64,000 bases of DNA from Opitutia bacterium (GCA_050506795.1 JBJHCF010000014.1:2846-66845); one strand, 5' to 3'; shown: positions 3,048 to 55,463, counted from the first letter of the stretch. Notes: generated by a model from the letters alone, not told the origin. Program-made: numbers and translations.

Positions 3048-3079
3048 TACATCAGTCACATACGGATGAACGGGTTACG

Positions 3080-4375: not shown

Positions 4376-4418
4376 AGGTTGCGGAGGAGAAGTCTTTTGG
4401 GCGAAGCCCGACAGACCC

Positions 4419-5964: not shown

Positions 5965-5980
5965 TATACGGGTTGGACGA

Positions 5981-8900: not shown

Positions 8901-9157
8901 TCAGCCTTGGGCCTATCATGGCCGTAGTTGTAGGAGCCGAAACCATGTTGCTCCCATTGGGAGGGAACCGGGATGGTCGTCCAATAGCCGCTCTGGCGAC
9001 CCGCGGTGCAAAAGAACTCCCATTCGACCGTTTGGTCGCTTCCGGTCCCGGAAAGGTGGATCACCTCCGTCTCGGCGGATTCCGGGGATTCCGCCGAAAC
9101 GGAAGTCGCCAGGGCGAGTGCGCTGGATAACGTGAATAAAAGATTCTTTCGGAACAT
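5981..9157 (-). CDS. Glycoside hydrolase family 2 enzyme with C-terminal F5/8 type C (discoidin) module
   Basis: Signal peptide 'MFRKNLLFTLSSALALATSVSA'. GH2 sugar-binding region ('VEINGASAGPEHQGGFYRFHYDITDLL'). TIM-barrel motifs ('NAVRMAHYPPDKHFLEACDELGLYVINE', 'WANGNEGG'). Discoidin-like 'NAVDDDTGSRWSARGDGAWIELDLGEPRSFSEVVVYW'. Confidence 0.85.
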   Translation of the reverse strand: MFRKNLLFTLSSALALATSVSAESPESAETEVIHLSGTGSDQTVEWEFFCTAGRQSGYWTTIPVPSQWEQHGFGSYNYGHDRPKADEQGKYRHTFEVPAEWEDRRVRIVFEGSMTNTKVEINGASAGPEHQGGFYRFHYDITDLLDFENPNLLEVTVSKVSANESVERAERDGDYWVFGGIFRPVFLEARPSEYIDWTAIDAQADGEFTMHVHLGPIRSADSIILELLDRQGNPVGERVTKSLQSDTGKAIIRTEATDIETWTAETPALYYAKVRLMNGDETLHQIRERFGFRTIEVREGDGIYLNGEKLLFKGVNRHSFWPDTGRTLNRRISYDDVRLMKEMNMNAVRMAHYPPDKHFLEACDELGLYVINELAGWHDAYDTTVGRQLVEGMVRRDVNHPSILFWANGNEGGHNFDLVEEYGRHDPQNRVVIHPTPSWVSPSLFNGIDTAHYPPYDDHIRRLQGTNIYMPTEFMHALYDGGAGAGLYDYWSAIKASPVGAGGFIWALIDEGVVRTDMNGWIDNDGNHAPDGIVGPYREKGGSFYTIKELWSPVQLTLPPLDSSFDGRIAVENEYAFTSLNQCLFEWKWADFADPQITPAGYTVHQRGFAQRADVGPGERGWIKIDLPDDWRQRDLLYVTAYDPDGAELFTWSQTVRTPAEYRESVIQETPGHLLAQEDDGILTLSVGPSTTRFDLESGHLIEAFRGGKRFSFGNGPRLVPARAATDFAPIVSARAGHEQQPNRAANAVDDDTGSRWSARGDGAWIELDLGEPRSFSEVVVYWQHGARRRFEFTIETSNDRESWRQVFDGHSRRQSTSSETYDVGDLTARYLRLTGHGNSENEWTSIHQIRIPKETPEIREVTHGREGETYVIHTREDRWNFRWTAYPSGWLKLDYRLDLSGTFEFAGITFDYPEEQVLAKDWIGAGPYRVWKNRMHGTRLGSHTNLYNDPIPGQTWAVPEFKGYFANIYRLGLTSREGKLTVLTDTPNLFARIFSPNFGPDPMSASSVMPDGDISFLHTIPAIGTKFRGIHQLGPGSHHSRIEEPLHGTLYFHVGGL

Positions 9158-9433
9158 GTTGTCGTCACCTTGATCGACAGCCGTTATTGGCGCTCGATCG
9201 AATCAGAGTAGGACGGCTGTCGTCGCGGGCACGATAGGATGAATGTTTTATTTTTAGCATATCTGATGCACGACAAGCCATCCATGTGCGTCCTGGTAGG
9301 CTGTGCCGGCACTTGACCTCGTCAGGATGACTGGCGGAAAGTGTAGATGTGCGGGGAAGTGCGCATCATTGGTGCTATAAATGATACATACTTCCTATCG
9401 CATTGCGGGGTGAAACGGAGGTAACCTTAGGAT

Positions 9434-38257: not shown

Positions 38258-41200
38258 ATGTCCACCCGCTTCTTTACCAACGCAGGCACGAAGACGCTCT
38301 TCGCCAAATTGGAAGGGGTGTTCCATCACAATCCCGATATTGAGCGATTCGACGCCCTCGTTGGCTACCTGCGCGCCTCCGGCTACTTTGCACTGCGGCC
38401 ACACCTTTCCAAGGTTTCGAAAGTTCGCATCCTCGTTGGGATCGACGTGGATGAAATCGTTTCCGACTACCACAAGCGAGGACTCCTCTTCCTCGCCGAT
38501 CCGACCAAGGCCCTCGAGGATTTTCAGAGCCGTCTCAAGGCCGACATTCAAAACGCCGAATACCGGGCCGATATTGAGGCTGGCATTTTGAGTTTCGTGG
38601 AGGATGTCGTCTCCGGAAAACTGACGATCAAGGCTCACCCCACGAAGCGGTTGCACGCTAAGATCTACATATTTCTTCCCATCGGCTGGTGCGAGCACAA
38701 ACCCGGCGCCGTTATCACGGGCTCATCGAATTTAACCGCCGCCGGACTCGGCGTCGAGGAGCAGTCGCGCAATTACGAGTTCAACGTCCTCCTTCACGAC
38801 TATGACGATGTGAAATTCGCGTCCGACGAGTTCCATAAACTTTGGGAGGAATCTGTCGATGTTCTGCCCAAAACCGTCCTGGCGGTTCGCGATTCCACCT
38901 ACCTTGCAACCACAATCACCCCCTACGAACTCTACTACAAACTTCTCGCCGAATACTTTGGTCCGGCGGTGGATTACGATCCCAACGCCGTCTCAGACCT
39001 TCCCGACGGCTTCAAACGCCTGAGTTACCAAATTGACGCTGTGAACAACGGTTATCGTCTACTTGAAAGGCACAATGGCTTTTTCCTTTCCGATGTCGTC
39101 GGCCTCGGAAAAACCGTCGTGGCGTGTCTCATCGCGCGGAAATTCTTTTTCCATAACGGGTTTCCCGACCATCGCTCCAACACACTCGCGATCTGTCCGC
39201 CTGCGATGGAGGATGATTGGCGTGAAACTAAAGACCGCTTCCGCCTCGACAACTTCGACATCGTTACCAACGGCTCACTACACAAGGTCCGCAATCCGCA
39301 AAAATACGACCTCATCATTATCGACGAGGCCCACAAGTTCCGCAACGACACCGCCGAAGCCTTTGACGATCTCCAGCGCCTCTGTAAATCCGGCACATTG
39401 CGCAAATTGTCCGACGGATCCGTTGCCGAAAAGAAGGTCATCCTCGTCTCGGCTACTCCGCTCAATAACGCTCCGCAAGACATCCGCAACCAGCTTGCCC
39501 TGTTCCAGGATCTGAAGCGCTCCACGCTCAGCGTTGGCAACCTCCAGCACTTCTTCGCGCAGTGTGACCGTGAGTTCCGCGCGGCCAAGAGGGAACCGAA
39601 TATTGAGGCCGCACGCCGAGCGGTGGTCGCTATCTACGAGCGCATCCGCACCAAGGTCATCAGCGAGATCATCGTTCGACGCACCCGCACGGATCTCCAC
39701 GAAAATGAAGACTACCGTCGCGATTTGGAAGAGCAGGGTGTGCAGTTCCCGCAAATCGAGCGGCCCCGGCACATTCTCTACCCGTTGACACCGGAGCTTG
39801 AGGCACTCTACGACCGCACCATCCAGATGCTCACCTCTGGGACCCCGACCAGCCTTACCTATAACCGCTACCGCGCCCTGACATTCCTGCGTGCCGACCT
39901 CAAGAAGAAGTATCACAACGCCGATCGCATCTCCCAGCAACTCGCCACCATCATGCGCACCTTGCTGGTGAAGAGGCTCGATAGCTCCTTCTACGCCTTC
40001 ACCGCCTCCCTACGCCGCTTTCAGGAAGCCACCCGCGTCATGATCGAAATGTTCGAGCGCGGCACCATTTACATCGCCCCCAACCTGCCGGTGAATCAGC
40101 TCATCCTCGAAGGGCGCGAAGAGGATCTTGTTTCCCTGATCGCCGAAAAACGGGATGCCGATCCCACCATCGAGGTTTGCGAACCCGCGGATTTTTCCGA
40201 TGACCTTCTCTCCGGGCTCCGCCTCGATCTTGATCGTGTGGCACCCATCCTCGCCGACTGGGAGGAAGTGGTCGCCTCCAATCAGGATCCCAAGTTCGAC
40301 CTGTTTTTACGCCGTCTGCGCGACGAACTGCTCAACCGCGAAATCAACCGTGACGGCAAACTCGTTGTCTTCTCCGAATCCCGTGAGACGACCGATTACC
40401 TCACCAAGCGCCTTTCCATCGCCGGAATTGACCGCGTCCTCACCGTCGACGCGGGTAACCGTAACGCCAGCCGCGACGATATCCGCGCCAACTTCGACGC
40501 CAATTACCCCGGCAAGCGGCGCAATGACTACGATCTCATCATCTCCACCGAAGTGCTCGCCGAGGGCGTCAACCTGCATCGTTCCAACATTATAGTTAAT
40601 TACGATACCCCGTGGAACTCCACCCGCCTCATGCAGCGCATCGGCCGCGTTAACCGCATCGGTTCGCTCGCGCCCCGAGTCTTCATCTACAACTTCTACC
40701 CGACCGCGCGCGTGGATGACGACATCGAGCTGCGCAAGAAGGCCATCATGAAGCTTCAGGCCTTCCACTCCGCCCTCGGCGAGGATAGCCAAATTTACTC
40801 GACCGATGAAGAAGTGGATACCTTCGGCCTCTTCGACAAGACCCCCGAGGACAACGAGCGCGACGAGCGTCTCACACTCCTCATGGAATTACGCCGCTTC
40901 CGTGCCGAGAATCCGGAGCAGTTCCGCCGCCTCGCGAAACTTCCCGCCCGCTGCCGCGTCGGGCGTGCCGACGCCGTCCGCGCCCGAAGCACTATTGCCT
41001 TCATCCGCAATGCCCACCGCGACGCCTTCTATCGCATTCAGCCCGATGCCGACCCCGAGGAAATCAGCTTTACCGAAGCAGCCATTGAGTTCCGCGCCAC
41101 CCACATCGATGAACCCGCGATTCCCCTGCACGCGGAGCACCATGCGCAGGTCAATACCGCCACCGCCGCTTTCCGCGAGGCGGTCGTCGCCGACACACTC

Positions 41201-41566
41201 GCGCCGCTGGCGGTCGAGGCGAAACAAGGACCCAATGAAAAACGCGCTCGCGACTTTGTGGATGCATTTCTCGCCTTCGACTTCATCAGCGATGAAGAGC
41301 GCCGCCTCATCCGCCTCGCCAAGCTCGCACTAGCCCGCGCCCGCTACGCGAGCCTTCAACGCGAAATCAACAAACTCCAGCGTAACACGAAAAAGGTGAA
41401 GGTGACTCCCGCCGTCCTCGCCGATAAACTTTTCGACATCCTCCGGGAGTATAAGCTGGAGGACATGGAAAATCAGGGTGTTGGCGTGACCGAGGCCATC
41501 CGTCGGGCCGAAACCGAGCCCGAGATCATCCTCACCGAATCCTTCGACCATCTGACCCAAGCATGA
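38258..41566 (+). CDS. PLD-family (HKD) nuclease domain fused to an SNF2/DEAD-type helicase (1102 aa)
   Basis: N-terminal HKD motif 'RLHAKIYIF...ITGSSNLTAAGL' (about 38654-38737). Helicase motifs 'VVGLGKTVVA', 'IIIDEAHKFRN' (about 39323), 'LVSATPLNN', 'STEVLAEGVNLH', 'LMQRIGRVNRIGS'. The stop overlaps the next start (ATGA 41563-41566). Confidence 0.85.
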   Translation: MSTRFFTNAGTKTLFAKLEGVFHHNPDIERFDALVGYLRASGYFALRPHLSKVSKVRILVGIDVDEIVSDYHKRGLLFLADPTKALEDFQSRLKADIQNAEYRADIEAGILSFVEDVVSGKLTIKAHPTKRLHAKIYIFLPIGWCEHKPGAVITGSSNLTAAGLGVEEQSRNYEFNVLLHDYDDVKFASDEFHKLWEESVDVLPKTVLAVRDSTYLATTITPYELYYKLLAEYFGPAVDYDPNAVSDLPDGFKRLSYQIDAVNNGYRLLERHNGFFLSDVVGLGKTVVACLIARKFFFHNGFPDHRSNTLAICPPAMEDDWRETKDRFRLDNFDIVTNGSLHKVRNPQKYDLIIIDEAHKFRNDTAEAFDDLQRLCKSGTLRKLSDGSVAEKKVILVSATPLNNAPQDIRNQLALFQDLKRSTLSVGNLQHFFAQCDREFRAAKREPNIEAARRAVVAIYERIRTKVISEIIVRRTRTDLHENEDYRRDLEEQGVQFPQIERPRHILYPLTPELEALYDRTIQMLTSGTPTSLTYNRYRALTFLRADLKKKYHNADRISQQLATIMRTLLVKRLDSSFYAFTASLRRFQEATRVMIEMFERGTIYIAPNLPVNQLILEGREEDLVSLIAEKRDADPTIEVCEPADFSDDLLSGLRLDLDRVAPILADWEEVVASNQDPKFDLFLRRLRDELLNREINRDGKLVVFSESRETTDYLTKRLSIAGIDRVLTVDAGNRNASRDDIRANFDANYPGKRRNDYDLIISTEVLAEGVNLHRSNIIVNYDTPWNSTRLMQRIGRVNRIGSLAPRVFIYNFYPTARVDDDIELRKKAIMKLQAFHSALGEDSQIYSTDEEVDTFGLFDKTPEDNERDERLTLLMELRRFRAENPEQFRRLAKLPARCRVGRADAVRARSTIAFIRNAHRDAFYRIQPDADPEEISFTEAAIEFRATHIDEPAIPLHAEHHAQVNTATAAFREAVVADTLAPLAVEAKQGPNEKRARDFVDAFLAFDFISDEERRLIRLAKLALARARYASLQREINKLQRNTKKVKVTPAVLADKLFDILREYKLEDMENQGVGVTEAIRRAETEPEIILTESFDHLTQA

Positions 41567-44500
41567 CCCGCGACGAATTCCGCTCCCTCCTTCAATCCCC
41601 CTATGACCGCTCGCGGTGGCTGGCGGCACTCCCGGCCTTCCTGCCCGCGATCGAAATCTTCGCGCGGCCACAATCGCTCGATTTTTCGACCGAGGCGGTC
41701 AGTTCCGCCGTGCAACTCGCCCGCATCCCACTGCCCGACGACCGCAACGTCGCCGTGCTCGAAGTCCGCGTCAGCGGCCAGGTGGATCTGCAACGCAATC
41801 GCGCGGGCCTGCGCAAGCTCGTCGCCCGCTACATCGGCTCGCCTTCGGCGGATGCCGTGCTCGCCTTTTTTGTCGGCGCTTCACCGGACTACCGTTTCTC
41901 CTTTGCCGCCCGCACCAACGCCATCACCACCGACGGCCAACATGAGCAAAAGGATACGGCTCCCCGCCGCTACACCTACCTCTTTGGTCCCGGCCAACCC
42001 TGCCGCACCGCGGTGGAACGCTTTGAACTGCTGCGTTCGCTTGGAAACCGCACGCAACTCGCCGATCTCATCAATGCCTTCCAGGTCGAGCCGCTGTTCA
42101 AAGAGTTTTACCGCGACTACGGAAGAGTTTTTGATGCCGTTGAAAACCATATCCGCCCGTCTCTCACCGGAAAGGAGCCGCTGCGCCTCTTCACCCAGCG
42201 TCTCTTCAACCGTCTCATGTTTCTGGCTTTCGTCGAGCGCAAGGGCTGGTTAAAGATGGGGGAACGCACGGACTACCTTGCCGCGCTGTGGGACGACTAC
42301 ACGAGCAAGCGCCGTACCGCGTCCGCCTCCGCCAACTTTTACGCCGACCGCCTGGTCCCGCTTTTCTTCGAGGGATTGAATCAACCCGACCGCGCCCCCG
42401 GCACCGTCGATCCGCGCTTTGGCGCCGTGCCCTACCTCAACGGCGGACTCTTTGAATACGCCGAAGACGGCACCGACCGCCTGCCCAAACTCCGCGTGCC
42501 CGATGAGGCCATCGCTCTCATCCTCGACCCCGAGACCGGCCTCTTTTCCCGCTATAATTTCACTGTGGTCGAGGACGACCCTTTCGAGAAAACTGTGGCC
42601 GTCGATCCCGAGATGCTCGGCAAGGTTTTTGAGGAACTCGTCACCGGCCGCCATGAACAGGGCAGCTACTACACGCCCAAGCCCATCGTCGCCTTCATGG
42701 CCCGCGCCGCCCTGGTTGAGCACCTTGCCGACCGCTGCCCGGGCGAACCCCGCGCCGCCCTGGAAGCCTTTGTCCACGAGGACGACGCCTCCGGACTCCA
42801 CGATCCCGAGGCCGTGCACCGGGCATTGATCACCATCAAAGTCTGCGATCCCGCCTGTGGTTCCGGCGCCTACCTGCTCGGCATGCTACACGAGCTGCTC
42901 GATCTGCGCACTCGCATCTTCGCCTCACGGCAAAAGGCCGATCCCGAGACCGCCTACCAACGCCGCCTCCAGATCATCGAGCGCAACCTCTACGGGGTTG
43001 ATAAAGACGCCTTCGCCGTCAATATCGCCCGCCTGCGCCTTTGGCTCGCCCTCGCGGTCGAGTTCGAAGGCCCGGTCCCGCCACCCCTGCCCAACCTCGA
43101 TTTCAAAATCGAGATCGGTGACGCCCTCGCCGCCCCCGCGCCCCAGGACATTTTTCAACGCCCGGCGGTCGAAGAGTTTCGCGACAGAAAGGCCGCTTAC
43201 CTCCGCGCCCACGGCGAAGAGAAGGAGAAACTAAAGGCCGAACTCGACCAAATCCGCGCCGATCTCGCCCTCTGGCAGCAGGCCGACCTCTCCGGCCATG
43301 GCTTCAACTGGGCCGTCGAATTCGCCGAAGTGTTTCTACCCGACGCTGAGGAACGCGCCTTGCTCGGCGACCTGCTCGTGCAAGAAGACGCACCGCCCTC
43401 CGTCCGGCCAGGCGGCTTCGACATCATCGTCGCCAATCCGCCCTACGTGCGCATGGAGTTGATCAAGCCGCAAAAACCCATCCTGCGCAAACGCTTCCCC
43501 CAAGTCCACGCCGAGCGGGCCGACCTCTACGTCTATTTCTACGCCCGCGCCCACGAACTCCTCCGGCCCGGCGGTGTCGCCGCCTTCATCTCCTCCAATA
43601 AATGGCTCCGCGCCGGCTACGGCGAAAAACTTCGCCAACATCTGCTCGATGATCAGGCGTTTCGGCTGGTTATGGACTTTGGGGCCTTGCCGGTCTTCCA
43701 ATCCGCGACCGCTTACCCATGTATTTTCGTTTGGCAGAAGCAAGACCGCGGTGAAATTTCAACAGCGTGGGCCAAGGTGACAGATTTGGATCGCTGCTAC
43801 GCTGACGGGGTTCGGCAGCACTTTCTTTCGCTGAATACTCAGGTGCCTGCAGATCAGTTCGGCGTTGGTCGGCCACGCTTGGCTACGGGTGCGACTGCCA
43901 ACCTTAAAGACAAGATGGTGCAGAATGGCCGTCGGTTGGGAGAGGTTTGCAACGGGCTTTTGGGTTGGGGAGTTAAAACGGGCCTAAACGAAGCGTTCAT
44001 CATTGACGAGGCGACACGCAACCGCCTGATCCATGAGACCCCGGATGCAAGTGAGATCATAAAGCCTCTCGTTGCAGGCAACGACGTCAGGCGGTTCGAC
44101 GTCCAATTTCGCCGGAAGTATCTAATCTATGCCTACCGCGGAATAGAAGTTTCTCGGTATCCATCCATCGAGCGGCATTTAAGGCCGTTTCGCTCCTTCA
44201 AGAACGCTAAGGGCCAAACCGTTGGTCTGGATCATCGTGCGACTAAGCAGGAGTGGTATGAATTGCAGCAACCCCAGATGGCCTATAAGAACTACTTCGA
44301 GAGCCGGAAAATCATTTATCCTGACATTGGCAAAGAGCTTCGTTTTGCAATGGACGATGTAGGCTATTACGGTGCGAATACGACCTACTTTTTACCGGTC
44401 GCGGATTGGTTTCTTTGCGGTGTGCTTAACTCGTCTCCAGTTCTGAAATGGATCGAGCTTAGCTTGGCCGACATTCGAGGCGGCTACCTCCGTTTCTTCG

Positions 44501-45594
44501 GCCAACACATGGAACAGCTTCCCATACCCGACGCATCTCCGGCCGACCGCGAGATCGTCGGCAACCTCGCCAAGCAGGCCCAGACCCTCCACGCCCAACG
44601 CCGTGCCCGCAGCGAGCAATTTCTCCGTGCCCTCGGGCTGGATCCGGCCGACAGCACCTCGCGCAACCCGCTGGAGCAGCCGTGGTCCCTTGCGTCCGAC
44701 GACTATGCAAAACGCGTCCGCAAGCTTCAGGGCCGCGCCGCGGACCTAAAACTCTATGAAGCAGCGCGTGACGAAACGGCTGCTCTGACAGAACAGATCG
44801 CCAAGGTCGAGGCCGAGATTGATGCCCGCGTGGCCGCCCTCTACGGCCTCGATGCCGAGGACCAGCGCTGGGCCGCCCAATCCGCCCCCGCCGACGGCAA
44901 GCAAACCCTCTTCTTCGATCTACTCGGCAAACTCAAGGGCCGCCGTGCTCACTTCTCGCTAACGGAAGTTCAGGCGGCCGTCAACGAGGCCGAACTCTCC
45001 CTCAGGGACGACACCCTGAAGGTTTACCTCAGCGAGGCGACCCAACAGGGGCTCATCCACGATGCCGGACGCGGTTGGTATACCCGCCACGCCAAACCGC
45101 TCAAACTGGATCCCAAACCGGTGCAAAAGCTCATTCGCGCGACCAAAAAAGCGCTGCCGCTACTCGACTTTTGCGCCTGGAGCACCGCCCAGCTCAACCC
45201 GTGGATGCAGCACCTCCTCGCCCAGCCCGTCGCCTTTCTCTACGTGCCCCGCGATACCCTCGAATCCGTCGGCGAAACCCTCCGCGCTCAGGGCTGGAAT
45301 GTCGCCGTCAACCCCGGCAAAAACGCCGCCCGCGAAGTGGTGCCCGGCGAGAAAACCGTCGTCCTCCGCCCCAGCCATTCCAAGCAGCCCCCGGATCACA
45401 ATCACCACGCCGCTCCCGAGCAAATCCTCGTCGAATTACTAATCGAAACCGAAGCCCTTGCGCTCATGGATGATTCCGAAGCCCGTGCCGCATGGATCGC
45501 TGCCACCGAAAGTGGTTCTGTGAAAATGGCTGAGATCAAACGATTTGCGGAATTCAAACATCTCCAATGGGACGATATTTGGCCAGCTAACTAA
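41563..45594 (+). CDS. Eco57I/PglX-like gamma-class N6-adenine DNA methyltransferase with TaqI_C-like TRD and a C-terminal AbiEi-antitoxin-like extension (1343 aa)
   Basis: 'LFNRLMFLAFVERKGWL' helical motif. Motif I 'VCDPACGSGAYLLG' (about 42841-42880). Motif IV 'IVANPPYV' (NPPY at 43435-43446). TRD motif 'GVKTGLNEAFIIDE'. 'ARVAALYGLDAEDQRW' is typical of the end of such MTases. A further ~240 aa follow (see the feature at 44875..45594). Confidence 0.85.
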   Translation: MTRDEFRSLLQSPYDRSRWLAALPAFLPAIEIFARPQSLDFSTEAVSSAVQLARIPLPDDRNVAVLEVRVSGQVDLQRNRAGLRKLVARYIGSPSADAVLAFFVGASPDYRFSFAARTNAITTDGQHEQKDTAPRRYTYLFGPGQPCRTAVERFELLRSLGNRTQLADLINAFQVEPLFKEFYRDYGRVFDAVENHIRPSLTGKEPLRLFTQRLFNRLMFLAFVERKGWLKMGERTDYLAALWDDYTSKRRTASASANFYADRLVPLFFEGLNQPDRAPGTVDPRFGAVPYLNGGLFEYAEDGTDRLPKLRVPDEAIALILDPETGLFSRYNFTVVEDDPFEKTVAVDPEMLGKVFEELVTGRHEQGSYYTPKPIVAFMARAALVEHLADRCPGEPRAALEAFVHEDDASGLHDPEAVHRALITIKVCDPACGSGAYLLGMLHELLDLRTRIFASRQKADPETAYQRRLQIIERNLYGVDKDAFAVNIARLRLWLALAVEFEGPVPPPLPNLDFKIEIGDALAAPAPQDIFQRPAVEEFRDRKAAYLRAHGEEKEKLKAELDQIRADLALWQQADLSGHGFNWAVEFAEVFLPDAEERALLGDLLVQEDAPPSVRPGGFDIIVANPPYVRMELIKPQKPILRKRFPQVHAERADLYVYFYARAHELLRPGGVAAFISSNKWLRAGYGEKLRQHLLDDQAFRLVMDFGALPVFQSATAYPCIFVWQKQDRGEISTAWAKVTDLDRCYADGVRQHFLSLNTQVPADQFGVGRPRLATGATANLKDKMVQNGRRLGEVCNGLLGWGVKTGLNEAFIIDEATRNRLIHETPDASEIIKPLVAGNDVRRFDVQFRRKYLIYAYRGIEVSRYPSIERHLRPFRSFKNAKGQTVGLDHRATKQEWYELQQPQMAYKNYFESRKIIYPDIGKELRFAMDDVGYYGANTTYFLPVADWFLCGVLNSSPVLKWIELSLADIRGGYLRFFGQHMEQLPIPDASPADREIVGNLAKQAQTLHAQRRARSEQFLRALGLDPADSTSRNPLEQPWSLASDDYAKRVRKLQGRAADLKLYEAARDETAALTEQIAKVEAEIDARVAALYGLDAEDQRWAAQSAPADGKQTLFFDLLGKLKGRRAHFSLTEVQAAVNEAELSLRDDTLKVYLSEATQQGLIHDAGRGWYTRHAKPLKLDPKPVQKLIRATKKALPLLDFCAWSTAQLNPWMQHLLAQPVAFLYVPRDTLESVGETLRAQGWNVAVNPGKNAAREVVPGEKTVVLRPSHSKQPPDHNHHAAPEQILVELLIETEALALMDDSEARAAWIAATESGSVKMAEIKRFAEFKHLQWDDIWPAN
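44875..45594 (+). other. AbiEi-like (type IV TA antitoxin, wHTH + C-terminal domain) region fused in-frame to the methyltransferase
   Basis: 'FSLTEVQAAVNEAELSLRDDTLKVYLSEATQQGLIHDAGRGWYTR' fits the AbiEi wHTH pattern ending in G-x-[LI]-x(3,4)-RG-x-Y. It is followed by 'AAPEQILVELLIETE', and the gene immediately downstream is AbiEii. Assigned by pattern recognition only. Confidence 0.55.
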
Positions 45595-45641
45595 CGCCAC
45601 AAATTCAAAAAATATGGCATTAGTTAATCGCATGTGAAGTT

Positions 45642-46745
45642 ATGTTCTCGGATCAGATTTACACCCGCGCCTGGGCCGACCGGGAACGCAAGAAGCTGGG
45701 AAATTGCGATCCCGGCTTGCTCGAAAAATGCGTCCGGGCGCTGACCCTGTTGGGGCATCTGGCGGAAAGCGAGCTCCCCTTTATGTTCAAAGGCGGCACC
45801 AGCATCCTACTTCACCTGCCGGAGATCCGCCGCCTCTCGATCGACATCGACATTGTTTCCCCGGCTTCGGATGCCGATCTGAACCGCGTCGTCGCTCAAA
45901 TCGCCCAGACCGCTCCCTTCATTCGCAGCGAAGAAGACATTCGCGGGACTGCTTCGGGACGCGAACTCTTGCCCAACCGCCGTCACTTCAAGTTCTGGTT
46001 CCCCAGCGAACGCGCCCAAACCGGAGAGGACTTCGTCCTGCTCGACGTGGTGCGGGAGGAGCACTGTCCGCATGACACCGTGACCTTGCCTATCCGCACC
46101 TCTTTCCTTGTCCCGGACCGGGAGATCACCGTCACGCTGCCCAGCATTGAGAGCCTGCTCGGCGATAAGCTCACCGCCTTTGCCCCGACGACGACCGGCA
46201 TCCGCCTGCGGAAGCACGGGGGAGAACCCGGCGATGTCATGCAAGTGGCGAAACAACTCTTCGATGTCGGCGTCCTCTTCGAACACGCTACCGATTTTGA
46301 GGCAGTCGCCCGCGCCTACAACGGCGTACAGGCGCAGGAATCCGGCTACCGGGACAATCTCCACACCCGCGAGGCCAGCCTCACCGACACCCTAAACGCC
46401 TGTCTCGGAATCACAGGTGAAGGGGTGCGCTACGCCCCGCCTACCCTCTTTCCCGAAAGGGCTTTGCTCCTCGATGGTTTCCATCGCCTACGGGGACACC
46501 TGACTCGAAGTCCTCCCAACGACAATGCCCGGCGCATTCTCGCCGCCCGCGCCGGTGTCTTGGCCGCGCATTTGCAAGCCAACCGGCTTCTCGACTTCTC
46601 CAGCGCCCGCTACACCCAAAGTCCCGATCAAATCGAGGCCCTGCGCGCTGCCACCCTAAACAACCACCCCCACGGCTGGCTAGACCGCATCAAGCAAACC
46701 AACCCGGAAGCCTACCACTACTGGCACCTCGGCCTGAATCTCTAA
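45642..46745 (+). CDS. abiEii: AbiEii/AbiGii-family nucleotidyltransferase toxin (type IV TA, DUF1814)
   Basis: 'FMFKGGTSILLHLPEIRRLSIDIDIV' matches the AbiEii GGT...R.S.D.D nucleotidyltransferase motif. 'LLGDKLTAF' is the second motif. Starts 48 nt after the MTase stop. Confidence 0.85.
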   Translation: MFSDQIYTRAWADRERKKLGNCDPGLLEKCVRALTLLGHLAESELPFMFKGGTSILLHLPEIRRLSIDIDIVSPASDADLNRVVAQIAQTAPFIRSEEDIRGTASGRELLPNRRHFKFWFPSERAQTGEDFVLLDVVREEHCPHDTVTLPIRTSFLVPDREITVTLPSIESLLGDKLTAFAPTTTGIRLRKHGGEPGDVMQVAKQLFDVGVLFEHATDFEAVARAYNGVQAQESGYRDNLHTREASLTDTLNACLGITGEGVRYAPPTLFPERALLLDGFHRLRGHLTRSPPNDNARRILAARAGVLAAHLQANRLLDFSSARYTQSPDQIEALRAATLNNHPHGWLDRIKQTNPEAYHYWHLGLNL

Positions 46746-46782: not shown

Positions 46783-46800
46783 AATCGCCTCTTAATCAGT
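46783..46800 (+). promoter_or_regulatory. 18-nt motif AATCG(C/A)CTCTTAATCAGT, site 1 (upstream of the Zn-ribbon gene)
   Basis: Read directly. Identical except for one base to 48309..48326, upstream of the protease gene. Confidence 0.4.
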
Positions 46801-46925
46801 CACACCACCCCGGCCGACAATGGAATTTCGGAATGGCTCGGCCTGCGGCTCATGCGGGAGGGACAACTTACCGTTCCGGCGAACGTGATCGCAATATATC
46901 AATAAACGTAATATAAGGCCCGCTA

Positions 46926-48167
46926 ATGCTCAATGCATTCATTCATCCACCGTTTCATAACTGTCCTTATTGCGGTGCGCAAAAGACGTTCGGCAGAATC
47001 TCGGTTGGGGACGAGCACTATATCCGTGAATGCAAGTCGTGTGGAAAGCGGAAGCGGATTCGACTTCCTCCACTTAAAAAGCGGGTGATCTACTTGGATC
47101 AGTGGTTTCTCAGTGATTTGACCAAGCTCGACGATTCTAGGTTTGATCGTTCGAAGTTCAGACAACACCAGAGGTTTTTCGAGGAGGCTAACGATCTGCT
47201 GCATGATCTTGTCAGGCTCAAACTGGTGATTTGCCCCGCGAGCCCGATTCATTTCCGCGAATCAATTAGGTCAGCCAAAGTCGCACCAAAACGGGTGCTT
47301 GCCGTTCTAAAAGACCTCTCATGCGGCATCGTCCTTAAGGATCCTGACCAAGTTTTGTGCCATCAAGTTGAGCAGGCTCTAGACTGTTGGATCTCTGGAA
47401 GAGATTGCAACCATGACATCTATGCGCAGGAGATAGCCAAAGGTAAAATCAACTCATGGGCATCCGCTCAACTCAGTCACGACTTCACGCCTTATCGATG
47501 TTGTGAGCAGCAGCGCTTCGAAACCGAAAAAGATAGGCGTGCGGATCGACTGAGGTCCGTCATTAGCCGTTGGAAGCACCAATGCGCTAGAAGCTTCAGC
47601 GAAGACTTTGAAGAGGAGCGTCGAAGCGTCGCAAACACGTTCAGATTGAAGTGGGCAGATTTAGTGAACGATGCCGGAGCTTGCACAACGGATGGGCAGG
47701 AAGATGCGCTTTGGCGTCTTCTTGGGAATGATCGTGCCCACCTATTATCCAGGGCGATCAGAAAGATTGATCGACCTGAGGATCTCCGTGAGTTTTTTCA
47801 GTCGAAGGAGTATTATGGCATCCCGGCGATCAACGTTGAAGCCACGATCTGGGCGACCATTGCTCATATGGTCCAAGCTGGATCGAAAAACCTCGAAGAC
47901 CCCGGCCTCGGCAATGATGTCGCCTTTATCTCACGGTACCTCCCTTACGTTGATGTGCTTTGTGTGGACCGTGCTTTGTTCAATGCGCTTTCGCATCCTC
48001 ACTGTAAATCAGTCATCCGGGGCCGAGAGGTATTCTGCCTCAAAAATGGCAAAGAAAGCTTTCTCAAATTTCTGCGCGATCTTAGGATTTCGCCGGAGGC
48101 CAGGAGAAACGAGAAGCTCTTGGATGAAATCTATTCAACACACGGTCGAGGCCAACACTCAAAATAA
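46926..48167 (+). CDS. Hypothetical protein with N-terminal Zn-ribbon (CPYC...CKSC); possible split PIN-like acidic motifs
   Basis: 413 aa, ATG start, clearly lower GC than the flanks. 'CPYCGAQKTFGRISVGDEHYIRECKSCGK' (46962-47042). 'VIYLDQWFL' and 'NDVAFISRYLPYVDVLCVDRALF' loosely resemble the first and last PIN motifs but lie about 300 aa apart. No family recognised. Confidence 0.6.
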   Translation: MLNAFIHPPFHNCPYCGAQKTFGRISVGDEHYIRECKSCGKRKRIRLPPLKKRVIYLDQWFLSDLTKLDDSRFDRSKFRQHQRFFEEANDLLHDLVRLKLVICPASPIHFRESIRSAKVAPKRVLAVLKDLSCGIVLKDPDQVLCHQVEQALDCWISGRDCNHDIYAQEIAKGKINSWASAQLSHDFTPYRCCEQQRFETEKDRRADRLRSVISRWKHQCARSFSEDFEEERRSVANTFRLKWADLVNDAGACTTDGQEDALWRLLGNDRAHLLSRAIRKIDRPEDLREFFQSKEYYGIPAINVEATIWATIAHMVQAGSKNLEDPGLGNDVAFISRYLPYVDVLCVDRALFNALSHPHCKSVIRGREVFCLKNGKESFLKFLRDLRISPEARRNEKLLDEIYSTHGRGQHSK

Positions 48168-48308
48168 GATTCCGACAACAAACCCTCCGCAGGATCGCCG
48201 TGATTGGCGGGCGGGCGTGATTCTTGTTGAAGGAAGACAGAAGACGTCAGGTAACATGAAAGGGGAAACCTTTGGATTTGGGCTATACTAGAGCCTGTCC
48301 CAAGTTGC

Positions 48309-48326
48309 AATCGACTCTTAATCAGT
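48309..48326 (+). promoter_or_regulatory. 18-nt motif AATCG(C/A)CTCTTAATCAGT, site 2 (upstream of the protease gene)
   Basis: Read directly. 55 nt upstream of ATG 48381. Confidence 0.4.
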
Positions 48327-48380
48327 GATTTTTTTAATATTTTCGTTCAATTGGTACAATTCGAAATTTTAAGGGAATGC

Positions 48381-49370
48381 ATGGGCCTTGCCACTGAAAT
48401 ACTAAGATTCTTCCATATGGACTTTTCCGGACGCTCTAAGGCGCAAACTGTTCGGACTATCGAGGACTTTTCAAAGCTCAAACCCGAATGGCAAGAAACG
48501 CTTGATCTGGGGAGCGTCTTCAGGAATTGTTCGCATTTAGAACAACATGGATACCTTTTTGAAGCCACCTCTCGGCATCCTCACCCTATCCTTGGCCGAT
48601 CCTATGTTTCGCCTAGTTTCGATTATCGGCGTGCAGAGTATGGTGAGTATGATTTCATAGGCCATGGTTTCGGTTTAATCGTCGAAAAGCTCGGCCCAGC
48701 AGTACGCCCTGTCGTTGTGTCAAAGGCAGATGGAGAGGAAGATATTGGAACTTGTTTCCTTCTGGGAAATCAACAAACTATCGTCACCGCCCGTCATGTA
48801 GTGGAGGGAATGGCGCGCATTGTTATCCCTGATCCTGAAGGCAATCCTATAAGAATTCGTCAAATCACAGTTTCCGAAAACCCAAATCTTGACGTAGCTG
48901 TCATTCTTGCTGAATCTATATTGTCTAACCTACCTTGCTTTCGCTGTAGTGAATCGAACATTCTCGATGAGGTTCTTTGCCTTGGTTTTCCTCCGATCCC
49001 GGGATTCGAAGCTACGTTGATTGCGGATCTTGCAACTATTAATTCCGAAATTAGGGCATCGCGTGGTCGTGTGGTCGCATTGAGCGATTCGTATCTGGAC
49101 CGACAGAGTTACATTTTAATAAATGCGCGAGTCAAAGGTGGAAATAGCGGCGGTCCAATCGTTAATCGGCAGGGATATGTAGTGGCTATTCTCGTTCAGG
49201 CTTCCATGAGCTCGGAAGATTTGCATAGCCTTGATTCTCTTGGATATGGTGTCGCTACTCCTAAAGGTGAATGGATTGGGCTTTTTAGGGAATCGGAAAC
49301 AGGTATATGTTCCGGAGTTGATCTGCCATTTGAGAACTTTCCAGATGGTGGATTTCGAACAAAACTTTAG
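48381..49370 (+). CDS. Cytoplasmic trypsin-like (S1/Trypsin_2) serine protease with an unknown ~120-aa N-terminal domain
   Basis: ORF 48351..49370. ATG 48381 is preceded by AAGGGA (spacing 4 nt). Catalytic triad context 'IVTARHVV' (His), 'NLDVAVIL' (Asp), 'KGGNSGGPIV' (Ser, about 49140-49157). No signal peptide. Confidence 0.8.
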   Translation: MGLATEILRFFHMDFSGRSKAQTVRTIEDFSKLKPEWQETLDLGSVFRNCSHLEQHGYLFEATSRHPHPILGRSYVSPSFDYRRAEYGEYDFIGHGFGLIVEKLGPAVRPVVVSKADGEEDIGTCFLLGNQQTIVTARHVVEGMARIVIPDPEGNPIRIRQITVSENPNLDVAVILAESILSNLPCFRCSESNILDEVLCLGFPPIPGFEATLIADLATINSEIRASRGRVVALSDSYLDRQSYILINARVKGGNSGGPIVNRQGYVVAILVQASMSSEDLHSLDSLGYGVATPKGEWIGLFRESETGICSGVDLPFENFPDGGFRTKL

Positions 49371-49574: not shown

Positions 49575-49991
49575 TTACACGCCCAGATACTGATGAAAAA
49601 CAGTGAAGCGTCGCGGCAGATGATGGACCGTTTCACTGATGCGCTTTTCGCCGGGGACAATTTTGGAATCGACCAGGGTTTTCGGGTTTGTGCACTTCAG
49701 CTTTTCCGCATTTTTTTGAATTGCGGCGGCTATTGAGACGCGCGCTTCGGCAACGTGTCCGTCGAAGACGTATCCCAGCATCCCACCAAACGCGAGTCCG
49801 CGTGCGTACCGGCCCTTCACGAAGCACAGCATTCCCTGTTCGCCGGTCACGTACTCGGACACCAATGAGTGCCAGCCCGAAGGAAACGTGACGTGCAGCC
49901 GTTTGGCTTCCGTGAGAAAGTAGGGCCAGGGTTTCTTCGCGCCGGTCGCAGCCAGAAAGGCAAGGTCTCCTCGTCCCAATGGTTTTTTCAT
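49575..49991 (-). CDS. Hypothetical protein, possibly frameshifted or truncated
   Basis: ORF 49575..50273, but its N-terminal 94 codons run through repeat copy 1. The first ATG outside the repeat is 49991 ('MKKPLGRGDLAFLAATG...'). An adjacent frame continues stop-free to 49414. No domain recognised. Confidence 0.35.
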   Translation of the reverse strand: MKKPLGRGDLAFLAATGAKKPWPYFLTEAKRLHVTFPSGWHSLVSEYVTGEQGMLCFVKGRYARGLAFGGMLGYVFDGHVAEARVSIAAAIQKNAEKLKCTNPKTLVDSKIVPGEKRISETVHHLPRRFTVFHQYLGV

Positions 49992-50087
49992 CGCGTTGCG
50001 CCGGTCGTAGATGGGGATTTCACGTAACAGCTCGATCGGGCGTCTGCGAAATTCGAGAAGGCCGTTGGGGTCAGCCCTTAAATTAAA

Positions 50088-50352
50088 AGTTAGGGGTACA
50101 AGCAAAGGACATCGGTTACACTTCAATATGGCAATTATGCCATGGAAGAAGAGTGTTCCGAGTGAAACGACAAGACTGGGTTTGCAGAGAACTGGACCAC
50201 CGACGGACGAAAAAGAACGATTTGTCGTACTGGTCGGGAGGCATTTTGTTTGCCCACGAAAGGCACGAAACACACGAAAGGGGAGAGGGAGGGCATTGGT
50301 CTGAGCGAAAGTGGTGGTTCATTTTTCGTGTGTTTCGTGGGCAAATTTTCCT
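50088..50352 (+). repeat. Hairpin-containing intergenic repeat family, copy 1 (~265 bp)
   Basis: Shares '(a)gttaggggtacaa', 'ggacatcggttac', 'tgccatggaagaag', 'ggaccaccga(c/t)ggacgaaaaagaacgatt', 'tttgcccac(g/a)aaag(g/a)c(a/g)cgaa(a/t)cacacgaaag' and 'ttcgtgtgtttcgtggg(c)caa(a/t)t(t/c)ttcc' with copies 2 and 3. Internal inverted repeat tttgcccacgaaa...cacacgaaa / tttcgtgtgtttcgtgggcaaa (50248-50279 / 50323-50345). Confidence 0.85.
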
Positions 50353-50551: not shown

Positions 50552-51700
50552 ATGATTGCACGACCTTTCTGGGAAAAGCGCATTCGCGAGGCGTGGGAGC
50601 GGGCGCCGATCGCATGGCTCGCGGGGGTACGTCGGGTTGGAAAGACGACGCTCGCGAAGTTCTTTCGCGATGGCGAGTACCTGAACTGTGATCTGGCCCG
50701 CAATCGGGAGCGGTTGTCGGATCCGGAATTCTTCTTTCAGCAATGCGACGCCGGATTGATCGTGCTGGATGAAGTTCATAAGTTGGAGGATCCAAGCGAA
50801 GTTCTGAAAATCGCAGCGGATGAGTTTCCGGAAAAGCGTATCCTTGCCACTGGTTCTTCAACCTTGGCCGCCACTTCAAAATTCAGAGACAGTTTGACCG
50901 GGCGAAAACGCGTGGTCTTTCTACCCCCCGTGCTGGCGTCGGAATTGAAGGCATTCGGAAAGGCGTCGCTGGAGGATCGCCTCTTGTGGGGCGGTTTGCC
51001 ACCGTGCCTTCTCGGCTCCGGCTCCGATCCCGAGTTTTACAGTGAATGGTTCGACTCCTATTTTGCCAGGGATGTCCAGGAATTGTTCCGTGTCGGCAAG
51101 CGTACGGAATTTCTGAAGCTCACGGAATTATTGTTGCGCAACAATGGAGGACTGGCGGACATCACGACACTGGCAAAGCATAGCGGTCTCACCCGCCCCA
51201 CGGTGATGAACTACCTCGATATACTGGAAATCACCCATGTGATACACCGTTTGCGTCCGTTCCATAACGGCGGGAAGCGTGAACTGCTCGCCCGACCCAA
51301 AATTTACGGCTTCGACACCGGTTTCGTGTGCTACACCCGCGCGTGGTCCGAACTGCGCCCGGAGGACCGTGGAGGCCTTTTGGAAAATCTCGTACTCGAT
51401 CTCCTCAAGGCCGCCCTCCCCACGACGCCCCCGCTCTATTGGAGGGACAAACAGGACCGTGAAATCGATTTCGTCCTGCCCGGCAAACGCGACCACACGA
51501 TCGCTGTCGAGTGCAAATGGAGCAGCACAAAGTTCAATCCTTCAAACCTCGAGGTCTTTCGGCGCTATTACCCCAAAGGGGAAAATCTGGTCGTCACCGC
51601 AGGACCCGGAGACTCGGAGAGGCGACGTTTCGGTCAACTTGAAGCAACCGTCGTACCGGTTTATCGGCTGTTGGATTGGATGGACGCGCGCAAGAGTTAG
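50552..51700 (+). CDS. AAA-type ATPase with DUF4143 C-terminal domain
   Basis: Walker A 'GVRRVGKTTLA', Walker B 'LIVLDEVH'. The C-terminal 'YWRDKQDREIDFVL...AVECKWS' restriction-endonuclease-like fold is typical of the AAA_14/DUF4143 family. Confidence 0.85.
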   Translation: MIARPFWEKRIREAWERAPIAWLAGVRRVGKTTLAKFFRDGEYLNCDLARNRERLSDPEFFFQQCDAGLIVLDEVHKLEDPSEVLKIAADEFPEKRILATGSSTLAATSKFRDSLTGRKRVVFLPPVLASELKAFGKASLEDRLLWGGLPPCLLGSGSDPEFYSEWFDSYFARDVQELFRVGKRTEFLKLTELLLRNNGGLADITTLAKHSGLTRPTVMNYLDILEITHVIHRLRPFHNGGKRELLARPKIYGFDTGFVCYTRAWSELRPEDRGGLLENLVLDLLKAALPTTPPLYWRDKQDREIDFVLPGKRDHTIAVECKWSSTKFNPSNLEVFRRYYPKGENLVVTAGPGDSERRRFGQLEATVVPVYRLLDWMDARKS

Positions 51701-51995
51701 GGGGTACAACCCAAAGACATCGGTAACAGTTATCCCAAGGACATCGGTTACACATCGGCGTGGCGTTTATGCCATGGAAGAAGGCCGTTCGGAGCGGAGC
51801 GACAAGACCGGGTTCGGAGAGAGGCGGACCACCGATGGACGAAAAAGAACGATTTCCCGTACGGGCCGGGAGGTATTTGTTTGCCCACAAAAGGCGCGAA
51901 TCACACGAAAGGGGGAGAACGGAGGTTATCGCTCTGAGCGAAAGCGGCGGCTCGTATTTCGTGTGATTCGTGTGTTTCGTGGGCCAATTTTCCTG
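51697..51995 (+). repeat. Hairpin-containing intergenic repeat family, copy 2 (~300 bp)
   Basis: Begins at the ATPase stop codon ('agTTAGggggtacaac'). Same blocks as copy 1, plus a duplicated 'acatcggtaacagttatcccaaggacatcggttac' submotif. Confidence 0.85.
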
Positions 51996-54026: not shown

Positions 54027-54322
54027 AGCGGTACAACCCAGAGACATCGGTAACCGTTATCCCATGGTCATCGGTTGCCCTTTATCGTGGCGTTTACGCC
54101 ATGGAAGAAGGCCGTTCGGAGCGGATCCGACAAGACCGGGCTCGGAGAGAGTCGGACCACCGATGGACGAAAAAGAACGATTTGCCGTACTGGTCGGGAG
54201 GCATTTTTTTTGCCCACGAAAGACACGAAACACACGAAAGAGGAAGAGGGGAGGGCATTGGTCTGAGCGAACGAGGTGGCTCGTTTTTCGTGTGTTTGGT
54301 GTGTTTCGTGGGCAAATCTTCC
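54027..54322 (+). repeat. Hairpin-containing intergenic repeat family, copy 3 (~296 bp)
   Basis: Same blocks as copies 1 and 2. Lacks the 'gttagggg' 5' block. Single-nt indels relative to copy 2 break any common reading frame. Confidence 0.85.
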
Positions 54323-54512
54323 TTCCTGCCTGTCCTTACAAGGCACAAACAAACCTTGGGATTAAATATTCAATGCGGTGTGTGCCATTGCGGTTGTTGT
54401 CCGAGAACGGACGCTTGGTGCGCCGTCCGTTCACTGTTTGCCGGAGAAAAGGGGGGCGCGGGATTCAGCGAGGCGGAGTGGGGGACGCTGATCGAGTCAT
54501 GATTGGAGTGTA

Positions 54513-54920
54513 TTAGACTTTGGTTCTCGGGAAATGACGGACTCGAGGCAGATTCTCAAAATGGTCATCCTGCGTCCAGAGAGTCGCATCGCGGACGAGC
54601 GCGAGCGCGTAAATCAACGAATCGGCGAGCGGGAGCTTGTGTTTGATGAAAAGGTCGGCCGCCGCAACGGCGATCTCTTCGTCGATGGAAACGACGATTC
54701 CGGACCGCATCGATTGGGTGACCCTGTCCGCCATTTCGCGGGTGCGTTGTTTGAGGACGACCTTGCGAACCTCGGCGATGACGATGGCGGGAACGATCAA
54801 TTCGGGCAGTTTTTTCAGGACCGGAGCAAAATGCCGGGTGTTGGGGCCGTCGTCCAAACACTCGATCCAGGCTGACGAATCCAGAAGGTCGAGCCGGGCA
54901 GACTTGGCTTGTTTGCTCAC
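54513..54920 (-). CDS. vapC: PIN-domain toxin (VapC family)
   Basis: 135 aa. 'LLDSSAWIECL' and 'LADSLIYALALVRDATLWTQDDHF' PIN motifs. 4-nt overlap with the antitoxin. Confidence 0.85.
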   Translation of the reverse strand: MSKQAKSARLDLLDSSAWIECLDDGPNTRHFAPVLKKLPELIVPAIVIAEVRKVVLKQRTREMADRVTQSMRSGIVVSIDEEIAVAAADLFIKHKLPLADSLIYALALVRDATLWTQDDHFENLPRVRHFPRTKV

Positions 54921-55132
54921 AGCTCCCGATCCTCCTCACGCTCGAACTCCAGCGGCTCACCTTTTCTCTTCAAGTAGCCGATCAGTTGATCCGGGGACAG
55001 GATTGGACGCAGCTCGATGCCGCCCTCTTTTTCGGTGACCTGGAGTTTCTGGCCAGGTTTGAGGGCAAGCTTTCGCCGAACATCCTTCGGGATGACGATT
55101 TGGAATTTGGGTGATATTGTGGAAGTTGTCAT
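54917..55132 (-). CDS. AbrB/MazE/SpoVT-type antitoxin (71 aa)
   Basis: ATG 55132 inside ORF 54917..55513 gives 'MTTSTISPKFQIVIPKDVRRKLALKPGQKLQVTEKEGGIELRPI', a typical swapped-hairpin AbrB-fold antitoxin. Confidence 0.8.
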   Translation of the reverse strand: MTTSTISPKFQIVIPKDVRRKLALKPGQKLQVTEKEGGIELRPILSPDQLIGYLKRKGEPLEFEREEDREL

Positions 55133-55463
55133 ACGAAAGGAATATCGTAAAACAAGAATGAATTTGCAAGAGAATTGTTCAAAGGAGGAAAGCGTCGGTA
55201 TTGGTCGGTGCATTCCGGGAGGGCGGACTGGCGGCGGATCAGCCCGCGGACGTTCGCCCATGACGGGTTGCGGTGGTCCATGCGGATACGTTCCGGGCAC
55301 GAACGGCAGTCTATTGTTAGACGCCGGAATGGTTTGAAAATCCAGCGCCGTCCATAGTGAGTGTGCTCGACGAAAATTCCAAGGCGCGATAGATTCACCC
55401 AATCTCCTCAATGGCGTTTCCGCTTGGAATTCACCTCTAACAGTTCGAATCAAGGTTTTGCTG

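Follow-up and report, generated by a model that had tools for sequence, protein, structure and literature searches.

Pairs made up of a metallo-beta-lactamase (MBL) pro-nuclease and a trypsin-like protease have been acquired repeatedly by the defence systems Hachiman, Avs, Lamassu and DRT, and within these pairs, which co-evolve, the protease unmasks the nuclease (Tuck et al., Science 2025, PMC12799240). It has also been shown that helicase-methylase and restriction-modification operons frequently carry defence genes within them (Payne et al., bioRxiv 10.1101/2024.01.29.577857). The subject of this report is a low-GC segment of two genes in a 64 kb stretch of DNA from an Opitutia bacterium (the window, with positions counted from its first letter). 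Gene 1 (46926–48167, + strand) encodes a zinc (Zn) ribbon protein of 413 amino acids and gene 2 (48381–49370, + strand) a serine protease of 329 amino acids, and the segment lies directly downstream of a defence operon at 38258–46745 (+ strand). The first-pass annotation of this DNA had proposed that the two genes form a self-contained sensor/effector pair. That proposal did not survive comparison with related loci, and we give an even chance to the reading that gene 1 and gene 2 are two independent, stand-alone mobile genes beside a defence operon and not one system.

The arrangement of the segment resembles that of the MBL pairs (HamM/protease-HamA, Avs1, Lamassu and DRT), in which a cytoplasmic trypsin-like protease likewise has a separate enzyme gene immediately before it and the two genes stand beside an unrelated defence system. 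One difference is that neither gene 1 nor its homologues gave a Lactamase_B/MBL match, and no MBL protein was present among the Foldseek matches. Gene 2 is also free-standing, with an N-terminal domain of its own, and is unfused to HamA, Avs, LmuA or a reverse transcriptase (RT), and the two families of the window are not co-inherited.

For gene 1 considered by itself the nearest described architecture is the Hma-embedded candidate HEC-09, which combines a weak IF2B/5-like N-terminus with a NYN/PIN-like C-terminus and showed no defence in published tests; its conserved aspartates were proposed to form a metal-binding RNase site (10.1101/2024.01.29.577857). Both are single genes found in or beside helicase-methylase operons, and both show a weak N-terminal resemblance of the eIF-5/eIF-2B type, which in the gene-1 family took the form of a weak Pfam match in 4 of 60 members. 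Gene 1 differs in having a helical insertion of ~170 residues. An identity with HEC-09 was rejected, as 0/60 members matched PADLOC HEC-09 and the only PADLOC hits were stray, weak and unrelated; the presence of the HEC-09 model in PADLOC-DB v2 was deduced from matches to HEC-01B and HEC-06.

Composition, co-inheritance and neighbourhoods of the two genes

The mean GC content of the window was 0.583. The three genes upstream of gene 1 had GC contents of 0.58–0.62 and third codon position values (GC3) of 0.72–0.75, compared to 0.498 and 0.536 for gene 1 and 0.462 and 0.379 for gene 2. When the whole window was scanned in intervals of 1240 nt, the starts of intervals below 0.50 were confined to 46900–48600, and the resulting trough, the sole strong one in the window, consisted of just gene 1 and gene 2, both on the + strand, with recovery from ~49400. 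A drop in composition over exactly these two + strand genes downstream of AbiEii had been described in the first-pass annotation and was reproduced here; the accompanying figure of 42–47% GC was correct for gene 2 and too low for gene 1, which is at ~50%. The foreign origin proposed at the same time was borne out, and the segment is horizontally acquired DNA: GC and GC3 reach their lowest values in the window here, and in other hosts, too, both families lie below the GC of their flanks, as measured for 93% of 57 gene-1 loci (median −3.8 points) and for 5 of 6 protease loci (by 6–17 points). The two genes also differ from one another. The GC3 gap of 0.157 corresponds to ~4–5 standard errors for genes of this size, and with GC3 values that differ to this extent (0.536 vs 0.379) the composition may point to separate acquisition and separate histories of gene 1 and gene 2, which are both foreign and adjacent.

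Gene-1 homologues were examined in 87 loci, of which 80 were metagenomic, taken from 403 confirmed matches, and 7 were viral; further places were found by exact look-up. At least 1 kb of sequence was available downstream of the homologue in 55 of the 87 loci and upstream in 63, while the loci of the protease family represented ~11 distinct contexts. A search of the 87 gene-1 loci and of the looked-up places with a hidden Markov model (HMM) of the protease family gave no hits, and the gene-1 HMM found none in the ~11 protease-family contexts. The two genes occurred together elsewhere only in a second assembly of the same organism. Synteny of the homologues had been put forward in advance as the test of the proposed pair, and no co-occurrence was detected outside that second assembly. 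All-against-all BLASTP clustering revealed no recurring neighbour family for gene 1, and a conserved remote partner was ruled out by iterated jackhmmer clustering of 71 immediate same-strand neighbours. An attractive protease/effector pair thus dissolved once ~100 related loci were examined, and within a defence island adjacency, a shared strand and shared composition are not enough to define a system.

The surroundings of the homologues in other hosts were those of defence islands and mobile elements for both families, as had been suggested for the segment itself. Neighbours of gene-1 homologues included HEPN_AbiU2, DUF4238, DpnII, a ClpB-like ATPase, a Ser/Thr kinase-TPR-WD40 protein and an Eco57I-type methyltransferase, together with TIR_2 genes, an ADP-ribosylglycohydrolase, zeta toxin and GmrSD. 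Tyrosine integrases, a large serine recombinase, a RES toxin, Dam methylase and IS200-like genes were also found, and on plasmids of Rhizobium and Mesorhizobium the neighbours were relaxase and coupling-protein (conjugation) genes. The homologues often overlapped the adjacent gene by 4–46 nt, and by analogy their behaviour fits well with the embedding of defence genes in helicase-methylase and restriction-modification operons. In Pseudomonas the protease gene adjoined DUF4238 and AbiU2, in one context HEPN_LA2681 and a reverse transcriptase were nearby, and in others the neighbour was HipA or an IS110 transposase; in Nitrospina watsonii the protease stood alone amid housekeeping genes. Each family therefore behaves like an independently mobile solitary gene of defence and mobile-element hotspots.

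In this respect both genes of the window resemble the solitary defence genes Rst_DUF4238 and AbiU2-type HEPN, which are single, have variable neighbours, occur by integrases, restriction-modification genes and prophage ends, and adjoin members of both gene families more often than any other genes do. They are unrelated in sequence to the window genes, which are defence candidates only, whereas DUF4238 has been validated as a single-gene defence against T7 (PMC9122126). It is reasonable to treat gene 1 and gene 2 each as a single-gene defence candidate, and an anti-phage role is probable for both. Gene 1 and gene 2 would be independently mobile single-gene modules that have come to lie side by side at the 3′ edge of the helicase-methyltransferase-AbiE operon.

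Several points weigh against this reading. The sampled loci were mostly short metagenomic contigs, and those inspected were 80 of the 403 confirmed gene-1 matches. The two genes are adjacent and co-oriented with a copy of a 20-nt repeat upstream of each start, an arrangement that also fits lineage-specific co-regulation or a newly formed pair. The assignment of gene 1 as a nuclease is drawn from just two sources, its conserved acidic residues and the predicted order of its secondary structure elements. No experiment or direct homology links either family to defence, and neither is a system in PADLOC v2.

The gene order of the segment, with the putative enzyme gene directly upstream of a trypsin-like protease and next to another defence system, is that of the published pairs (PMC12799240), and by analogy gene 1 could be a latent pro-enzyme that is activated through cleavage by the gene-2 protease, the two having been appended to the helicase-methyltransferase-AbiE operon in the manner of the MBL pro-nuclease and protease pairs. 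The domain-level PADLOC matches of gene 2 agree with this, as they are to the protease modules of RT-Protease_XI (8e-15), LmuA (3.6e-11), PDC-M35A (3e-11) and HamA (1e-5). The two genes lie on the same strand with a spacing of 213 nt and no predicted terminator between them, each start codon is preceded by a copy of the 20-nt motif, and the segments of the gene-1 model with lower confidence (residues 181–200 and 251–280) could be cleavable loops. The published pairs co-evolve, however, whereas no co-inheritance was detected here and both families are abundant as solitary genes. Gene 1 does not have an MBL fold and lacks a Lactamase_B match, and the protease domain is located C-terminal to a small domain rather than being fused N-terminally to a sensor enzyme. 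With a GC3 difference of ~0.16 and a repeat that brackets gene 1 instead of marking the pair, we consider activation of gene 1 by gene 2 improbable and retain the reading of two independent genes.

The gene-1 and gene-2 protein families

Relatives of gene 1 were collected by an exhaustive HMMER search against 1.84 billion cluster representatives, clustered at 50% identity, which gave 794 representatives at E<=1e-3 and 49 at E<=1e-30. A word-indexed homologue search with gene 1 had returned only gene 1 itself, and a later profile search 13 proteins. The best 150 relatives listed aligned with gene 1 from end to end at 23–32% identity and were nearly all 380–515 amino acids in length, mostly 400–450. 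Gene 1 thereby marks a sizeable 'dark' family of ~800 clusters that has no entry in Pfam, NCBIfam, PADLOC or PHROGs. When gene 1 and 60 homologues were scanned against these four collections no match was obtained beyond weak Zn-ribbon models, in agreement with the initial failure to recognise any other domain. A profile of the family found nothing among the PDB sequences, and gene 1 had no match in deposited phage genomes. The family is present on chromosomes, plasmids and prophages, and its plasmid matches were annotated solely as 'hypothetical protein'. In plasmid pOM4 of Mesorhizobium onobrychidis the homologue (6998–8196 of locus L116) was annotated as two consecutive hypothetical proteins of 227 and 175 amino acids, which suggests a frameshifted pseudogene; split homologues were also seen in two further loci (L030 and L044).

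The N-terminal Zn ribbon of gene 1, noted in the first-pass annotation as CPYC-x19-CKSC, is formed by C13-P-Y-C16, a spacer of 19 residues and C36-K-S-C39, and all four cysteines were invariant in an alignment of 60 sequences. The other invariant residues were D58, P104, E112, W178, W216, E231 and D331, and D343, D348, H109, S106, S113, Q59 and Q99 were at least 90% conserved. The two acidic motifs that had been flagged in the first-pass annotation contain four of these positions, of which D58 and D331 are invariant while D343 and D348 are nearly so. Judged from the alignment, this pattern of conservation is enzyme-like.

The structure of gene 1 was modelled with AlphaFold2 using the family alignment, giving a mean predicted local distance difference test score (pLDDT) of 89.5 and a predicted template modelling score (pTM) of 0.89, with less confidence at residues 181–200 and 251–280. 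The model consists of a four-stranded ribbon followed by an alternating strand/helix core, with strands at residues 53–57, ~100–104, 136–137, 344–346 and 368–370, and the core is split by the helical insertion (residues ~158–327). In this model D58 follows strand 1, E112 is located in the helix after strand 2, D331 is at the start of the helix preceding strand 4, and D343 and D348 lie on either side of strand 4. Four conserved acidic residues are in this way placed at the C-terminal edges of the strands of the core. Superposition by Foldseek against the PDB and BFVD gave nothing at E<=1e-3 for the model; the ribbon was the sole part that resembled PDB structures, namely the ribbons of Elf1, NrdR and the Lar type.

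The order of the acidic residues in the model would be that of the PIN/NYN nucleases. These enzymes, such as VapC and the NYN domain of MARF1, have four conserved acidic residues, one following strand 1, one in the helix that comes after strand 2 and the others around strand 4, and a parallel alpha/beta core of the kind predicted for gene 1. One difference is that in gene 1 a large insertion divides the core and a Zn ribbon precedes it. A further difference is that gene 1 had no Pfam or other profile match to PIN/NYN families, and no PIN or NYN entry was present among the top 50 Foldseek PDB matches of the model. A faint PIN resemblance had been suspected from the outset; the acidic residues were found to be conserved at the places expected, while the profile and Foldseek comparisons gave no match to PIN. 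Alignment of the gene-1 family by hhalign with the VapC-like toxin encoded further downstream in the window gave a probability of 0.2%. This VapC found no PDB relatives by phmmer, and the fetched loci contained no homologues of it that could have served for a PIN profile.

The invariant D58, E112 and D331 together with D343/D348 suggest that gene 1 is a metal-dependent nucleic-acid enzyme, as far as the predicted model allows. The Zn ribbon, joined to the alpha/beta core, would probably bind nucleic acid, and the protein could act as a stand-alone, metal-dependent, nuclease-like effector without a dedicated partner, serving either phage defence or conflicts among mobile elements. As a single-gene candidate the family could be screened cheaply for phage defence or plasmid exclusion. 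No new system is present at this locus; what is new is a large family that lacks annotation and has a confidently predicted structure without a match, together with unexplained repeat-bounded single-gene insertions.

The open reading frame (ORF) of gene 2 was listed mechanically from a TTG at 48351, giving 339 amino acids. Because its ~120 homologues, with a length of ~329 amino acids, begin at the position of the ATG at 48381, the product was taken to be the 329 amino acid protein encoded by 48381–49370. The residues named as the catalytic triad of a trypsin-fold serine protease in the first-pass annotation correspond to H139, D171 and S256, which were invariant and in canonical order in 73 homologues, and the protein matched Trypsin_2 above the gathering cut-off (E 1.8e-17). 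The AlphaFold2 model (pLDDT 85.8) had as its best PDB neighbours the protease domains of DegP, DegS, DegQ, AlgW, MucD and Rv3671c, with Foldseek E-values of ~1e-13 over ~210 columns. The first ~110 residues form a family-specific helix/strand domain that had no match. A full-length match was obtained to phrog_18002 (E 4.5e-83; residues 4–293 against positions 10–298 of the 330 in the profile), so that gene 2 is a full-length member of PHROG 18002, a phage and prophage family of unknown function that carries no functional annotation. Among viral sequences gene 2 had no match in deposited phage genomes and was matched only in prophage-like contigs of IMG/VR, and a single-sequence search of the genome contigs for the protease returned one distant, irrelevant match.

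In common with the S1C proteases HtrA, DegP, DegS and MarP, gene 2 has the chymotrypsin fold and a His-Asp-Ser triad. The proteins differ in several ways, as gene 2 lacks a signal peptide, membrane anchor and PDZ domain and contains the novel ~110 residue N-terminal domain. The curated NCBIfam cut-offs for HtrA and MarP were far from reached (56 bits against 250 for MarP), and the context of gene 2 is one of mobile elements rather than housekeeping genes. No PDZ domain was found by the Pfam scan, and none of 73 family members had a hydrophobic run resembling a signal peptide or transmembrane segment, in line with the earlier statement that gene 2 has no signal peptide. A signal-peptide-like hydrophobic N-terminus was likewise absent from every member of the gene-1 family, and both proteins are predicted from their sequences to be cytoplasmic. 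Residues 206–222 of gene 2 (PIPGFEATLIADLATIN) belong to one of the most conserved segments of the family, in which G202, P204, P205 and F209 are invariant, and are the only region of the model with a pLDDT <50; this loop may be a regulatory or activation loop.

Gene 2 would be a stand-alone cytoplasmic HtrA-like protease in which the N-terminal domain presumably senses a trigger or controls oligomerisation, and the activated protease could cleave host or phage proteins as an abortive-infection effector. If so, the family would extend the cytoplasmic trypsin-like proteases of bacterial immunity to a free-standing form. It is a second single-gene candidate, and one that occupies classic prophage accessory-gene (moron) positions. 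In one P2-like prophage (2797–9286 of locus L099) the protease gene lies between the tail-fibre/tail-fibre-assembly genes and the sheath/tube genes, where P2 itself carries the non-essential Z/fun gene. Ten near-identical copies of this protease were present in isolate-derived contigs of IMG/VR, in at least two different contexts. In Chryseobacterium salivictor (CP037954.1; 6001–7427 of locus L114) the protease is followed after 8 nt by a TIR_2 protein of 139 amino acids and then by a leucine-rich repeat protein, with SocA_Panacea nearby, and this may be a local protease-TIR pairing unlike the arrangement in the window.

The 20-nt repeat and single-gene mobility

Both genes are preceded by a copy of the motif AATCG[C/A]CTCTTAATCAGT[C/G]A on the + strand. 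The left copy at 46783–46802 (AATCGCCTCTTAATCAGTCA) lies 38 nt past the AbiEii stop and 143 nt before the ATG of gene 1, and the right copy at 48309–48328 (AATCGACTCTTAATCAGTGA) lies ~142 nt past the gene-1 stop and 53 nt before the ATG of gene 2. The copies differ by two mismatches, and when up to 3 mismatches were allowed no further match was found in the 64 kb, where shuffled sequences gave an expectation of 0. The first-pass annotation had described the same 18-nt motif before both genes; a copy does precede each, but the repeat is 20 nt long and its copies bracket gene 1. No third copy was found after gene 2, and the motif was absent upstream of protease homologues elsewhere and from all other loci. 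Its identification as a promoter or terminator was rejected, as there was no sigma-70-like site on the + strand and no excess of terminators, and as an RNA element by an empty Rfam scan. The repeat could be a shared regulatory site or a duplication caused by insertion; a duplication fits with single-gene mobility of gene 1. The candidate mobile unit, 46783–48328 with no strand assigned, would consist of gene 1 with ~140 nt of non-coding sequence on each side and be bounded by the repeat.

Flanking repeats were surveyed in 74 gene-1 loci with both flanks available and compared with the range obtained from shuffles. Repeats above this range were found in 3 of the 74, namely the window (20 nt), locus L063 (14 nt, perfect) and locus L078 (47 nt, perfect). 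At 5719–7690 of L078 the left 47-nt copy is the 3′ end of tRNA-Ile(GAT), and the 1.9 kb between the copies holds the gene-1 homologue only. The 13-kb locus contained no integrase, and the housekeeping genes SCO1 and COX1 are located beyond the insertion. A general targeting of tRNA genes was rejected, as a tRNA was present within ~1.2 kb in 3 (L029, L078 and L087) of ~85 loci and directly adjoined the homologue in L078 only.

These insertions could be accounted for if gene 1 were itself a mobility enzyme, such as a site-specific recombinase, a transposase or a homing-type nuclease, of a minimal single-gene selfish element, with the repeats as att or target duplications. The repeat around gene 1 is near-symmetric, the L078 homologue is the sole gene of a 1.9-kb insertion at tRNA-Ile with no integrase within 13 kb, and L063 has a perfect 14-nt flanking repeat. 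The absence of a conserved neighbour and the distribution of the family over chromosomes, plasmids and prophages point in the same direction, and transposases and nucleases commonly combine a Zn ribbon with a DEDD-like set of acidic residues. Against this, flanking repeats above the shuffle range were confined to just 3 of the 74 loci and nearby tRNA genes to just 3 of ~85, and the many homologues that overlap a neighbour by 4–46 nt indicate embedding in operons rather than a discrete element. Terminal inverted repeats were not found, no locus contained multiple copies, and neither the transposase and recombinase models of Pfam and NCBIfam nor the PDB sequences were matched, nor was such a fold found by Foldseek. 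A single-gene island could, moreover, be what is left of a larger element that had integrated. It is thus unlikely that gene 1 is a mobility enzyme.

The stronger form of this proposal is that members of the gene-1 family make up the entire protein content of a new kind of minimal self-integrating element, each being a Zn-ribbon/DEDD-type enzyme that inserts its own gene at specific sites, for instance the tRNA-Ile 3′ end in L078 or the 20-nt site next to AbiEii in the window, and leaves repeats of 14–47 nt, and we think this very unlikely. If true, it would explain both why gene 1 lacks a partner and how the family has spread over chromosomes, plasmids and prophages. The repeat-bracketed single-gene insertions in the window and in L078 raise the testable question of how solitary genes move.

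That one or both genes are ordinary, a Zn-ribbon regulator or a quality-control protease made to look foreign by local composition, is scarcely credible, since the resemblance of the gene-2 domain to the HtrA/DegS quality-control proteases and the frequency of Zn ribbons in regulators, with Elf1 and NrdR ribbons among the Foldseek matches, are set against two families that are patchy, below flank GC across hosts, located among mobile and defence genes and devoid of a conserved housekeeping neighbourhood, and against a protease without the signal peptide and PDZ domains of HtrA that scored far under the curated HtrA and MarP cut-offs. The reading of two independent mobile genes therefore remains the one we prefer.

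The defence operon and other features of the window

The operon upstream of gene 1 was identified from family matches and consists of three genes on the + strand. A PLD-SNF2 helicase (38258–41566) is followed by an Eco57I/MmeI-like N6-methyltransferase (41563–45594), of which the C-terminal ~200 amino acids are AbiEi/DUF6577 antitoxin-like, and by AbiEii (45642–46745). The helicase and methyltransferase genes overlap by the sequence ATGA. According to these matches the operon physically fuses a helicase-methylase module, which is restriction-modification-like, Hma-like or DISARM-like, with a toxin-antitoxin (abortive-infection) module of type IV. A similar helicase (E 9e-117) and methyltransferase (E 3e-77) directly precede the gene-1 homologue of locus L083 (1–7248), which overlaps the methyltransferase stop by 23 nt with no AbiE genes between them. 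The gene-1 family has thus come to lie beside this helicase-methylase system a second time, independently of the window; the contig ends 123 nt past the homologue.

Downstream of gene 2 a convergent ORF of 232 amino acids (49575–50273, − strand) had no Pfam, PADLOC, NCBIfam or PHROGs match. A shorter product of ~137 amino acids from an internal ATG is more plausible, since the 5′ part of the ORF enters the first copy of a repeat element. This element, of ~240 nt, is present in three copies at 50105–50345, 51737–51994 and 54065–54323 with 61–91% identity. It contains a 22-nt inverted repeat (50249–50270 and 50324–50345), gives rise to spurious ORFs with similar translations, and resembles an intergenic repeat of the repetitive extragenic palindromic (REP) or miniature inverted-repeat transposable element (MITE) type. 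An ATPase with AAA_14 and DUF4143 domains is encoded at 50552–51700 and matched the PADLOC single-gene candidate PDC-S01 (E 1e-52). With the operon on one side and this ATPase on the other, gene 1 and gene 2 lie in a region rich in defence genes, in agreement with the first-pass annotation. Further downstream, at 54513–55150 on the − strand, translations judged by eye included a VapC-like PIN toxin of 135 amino acids preceded by an ORF in which the C-terminal ~70 amino acids, also judged by eye, are like an antitoxin of the AbrB/SpoVT type.

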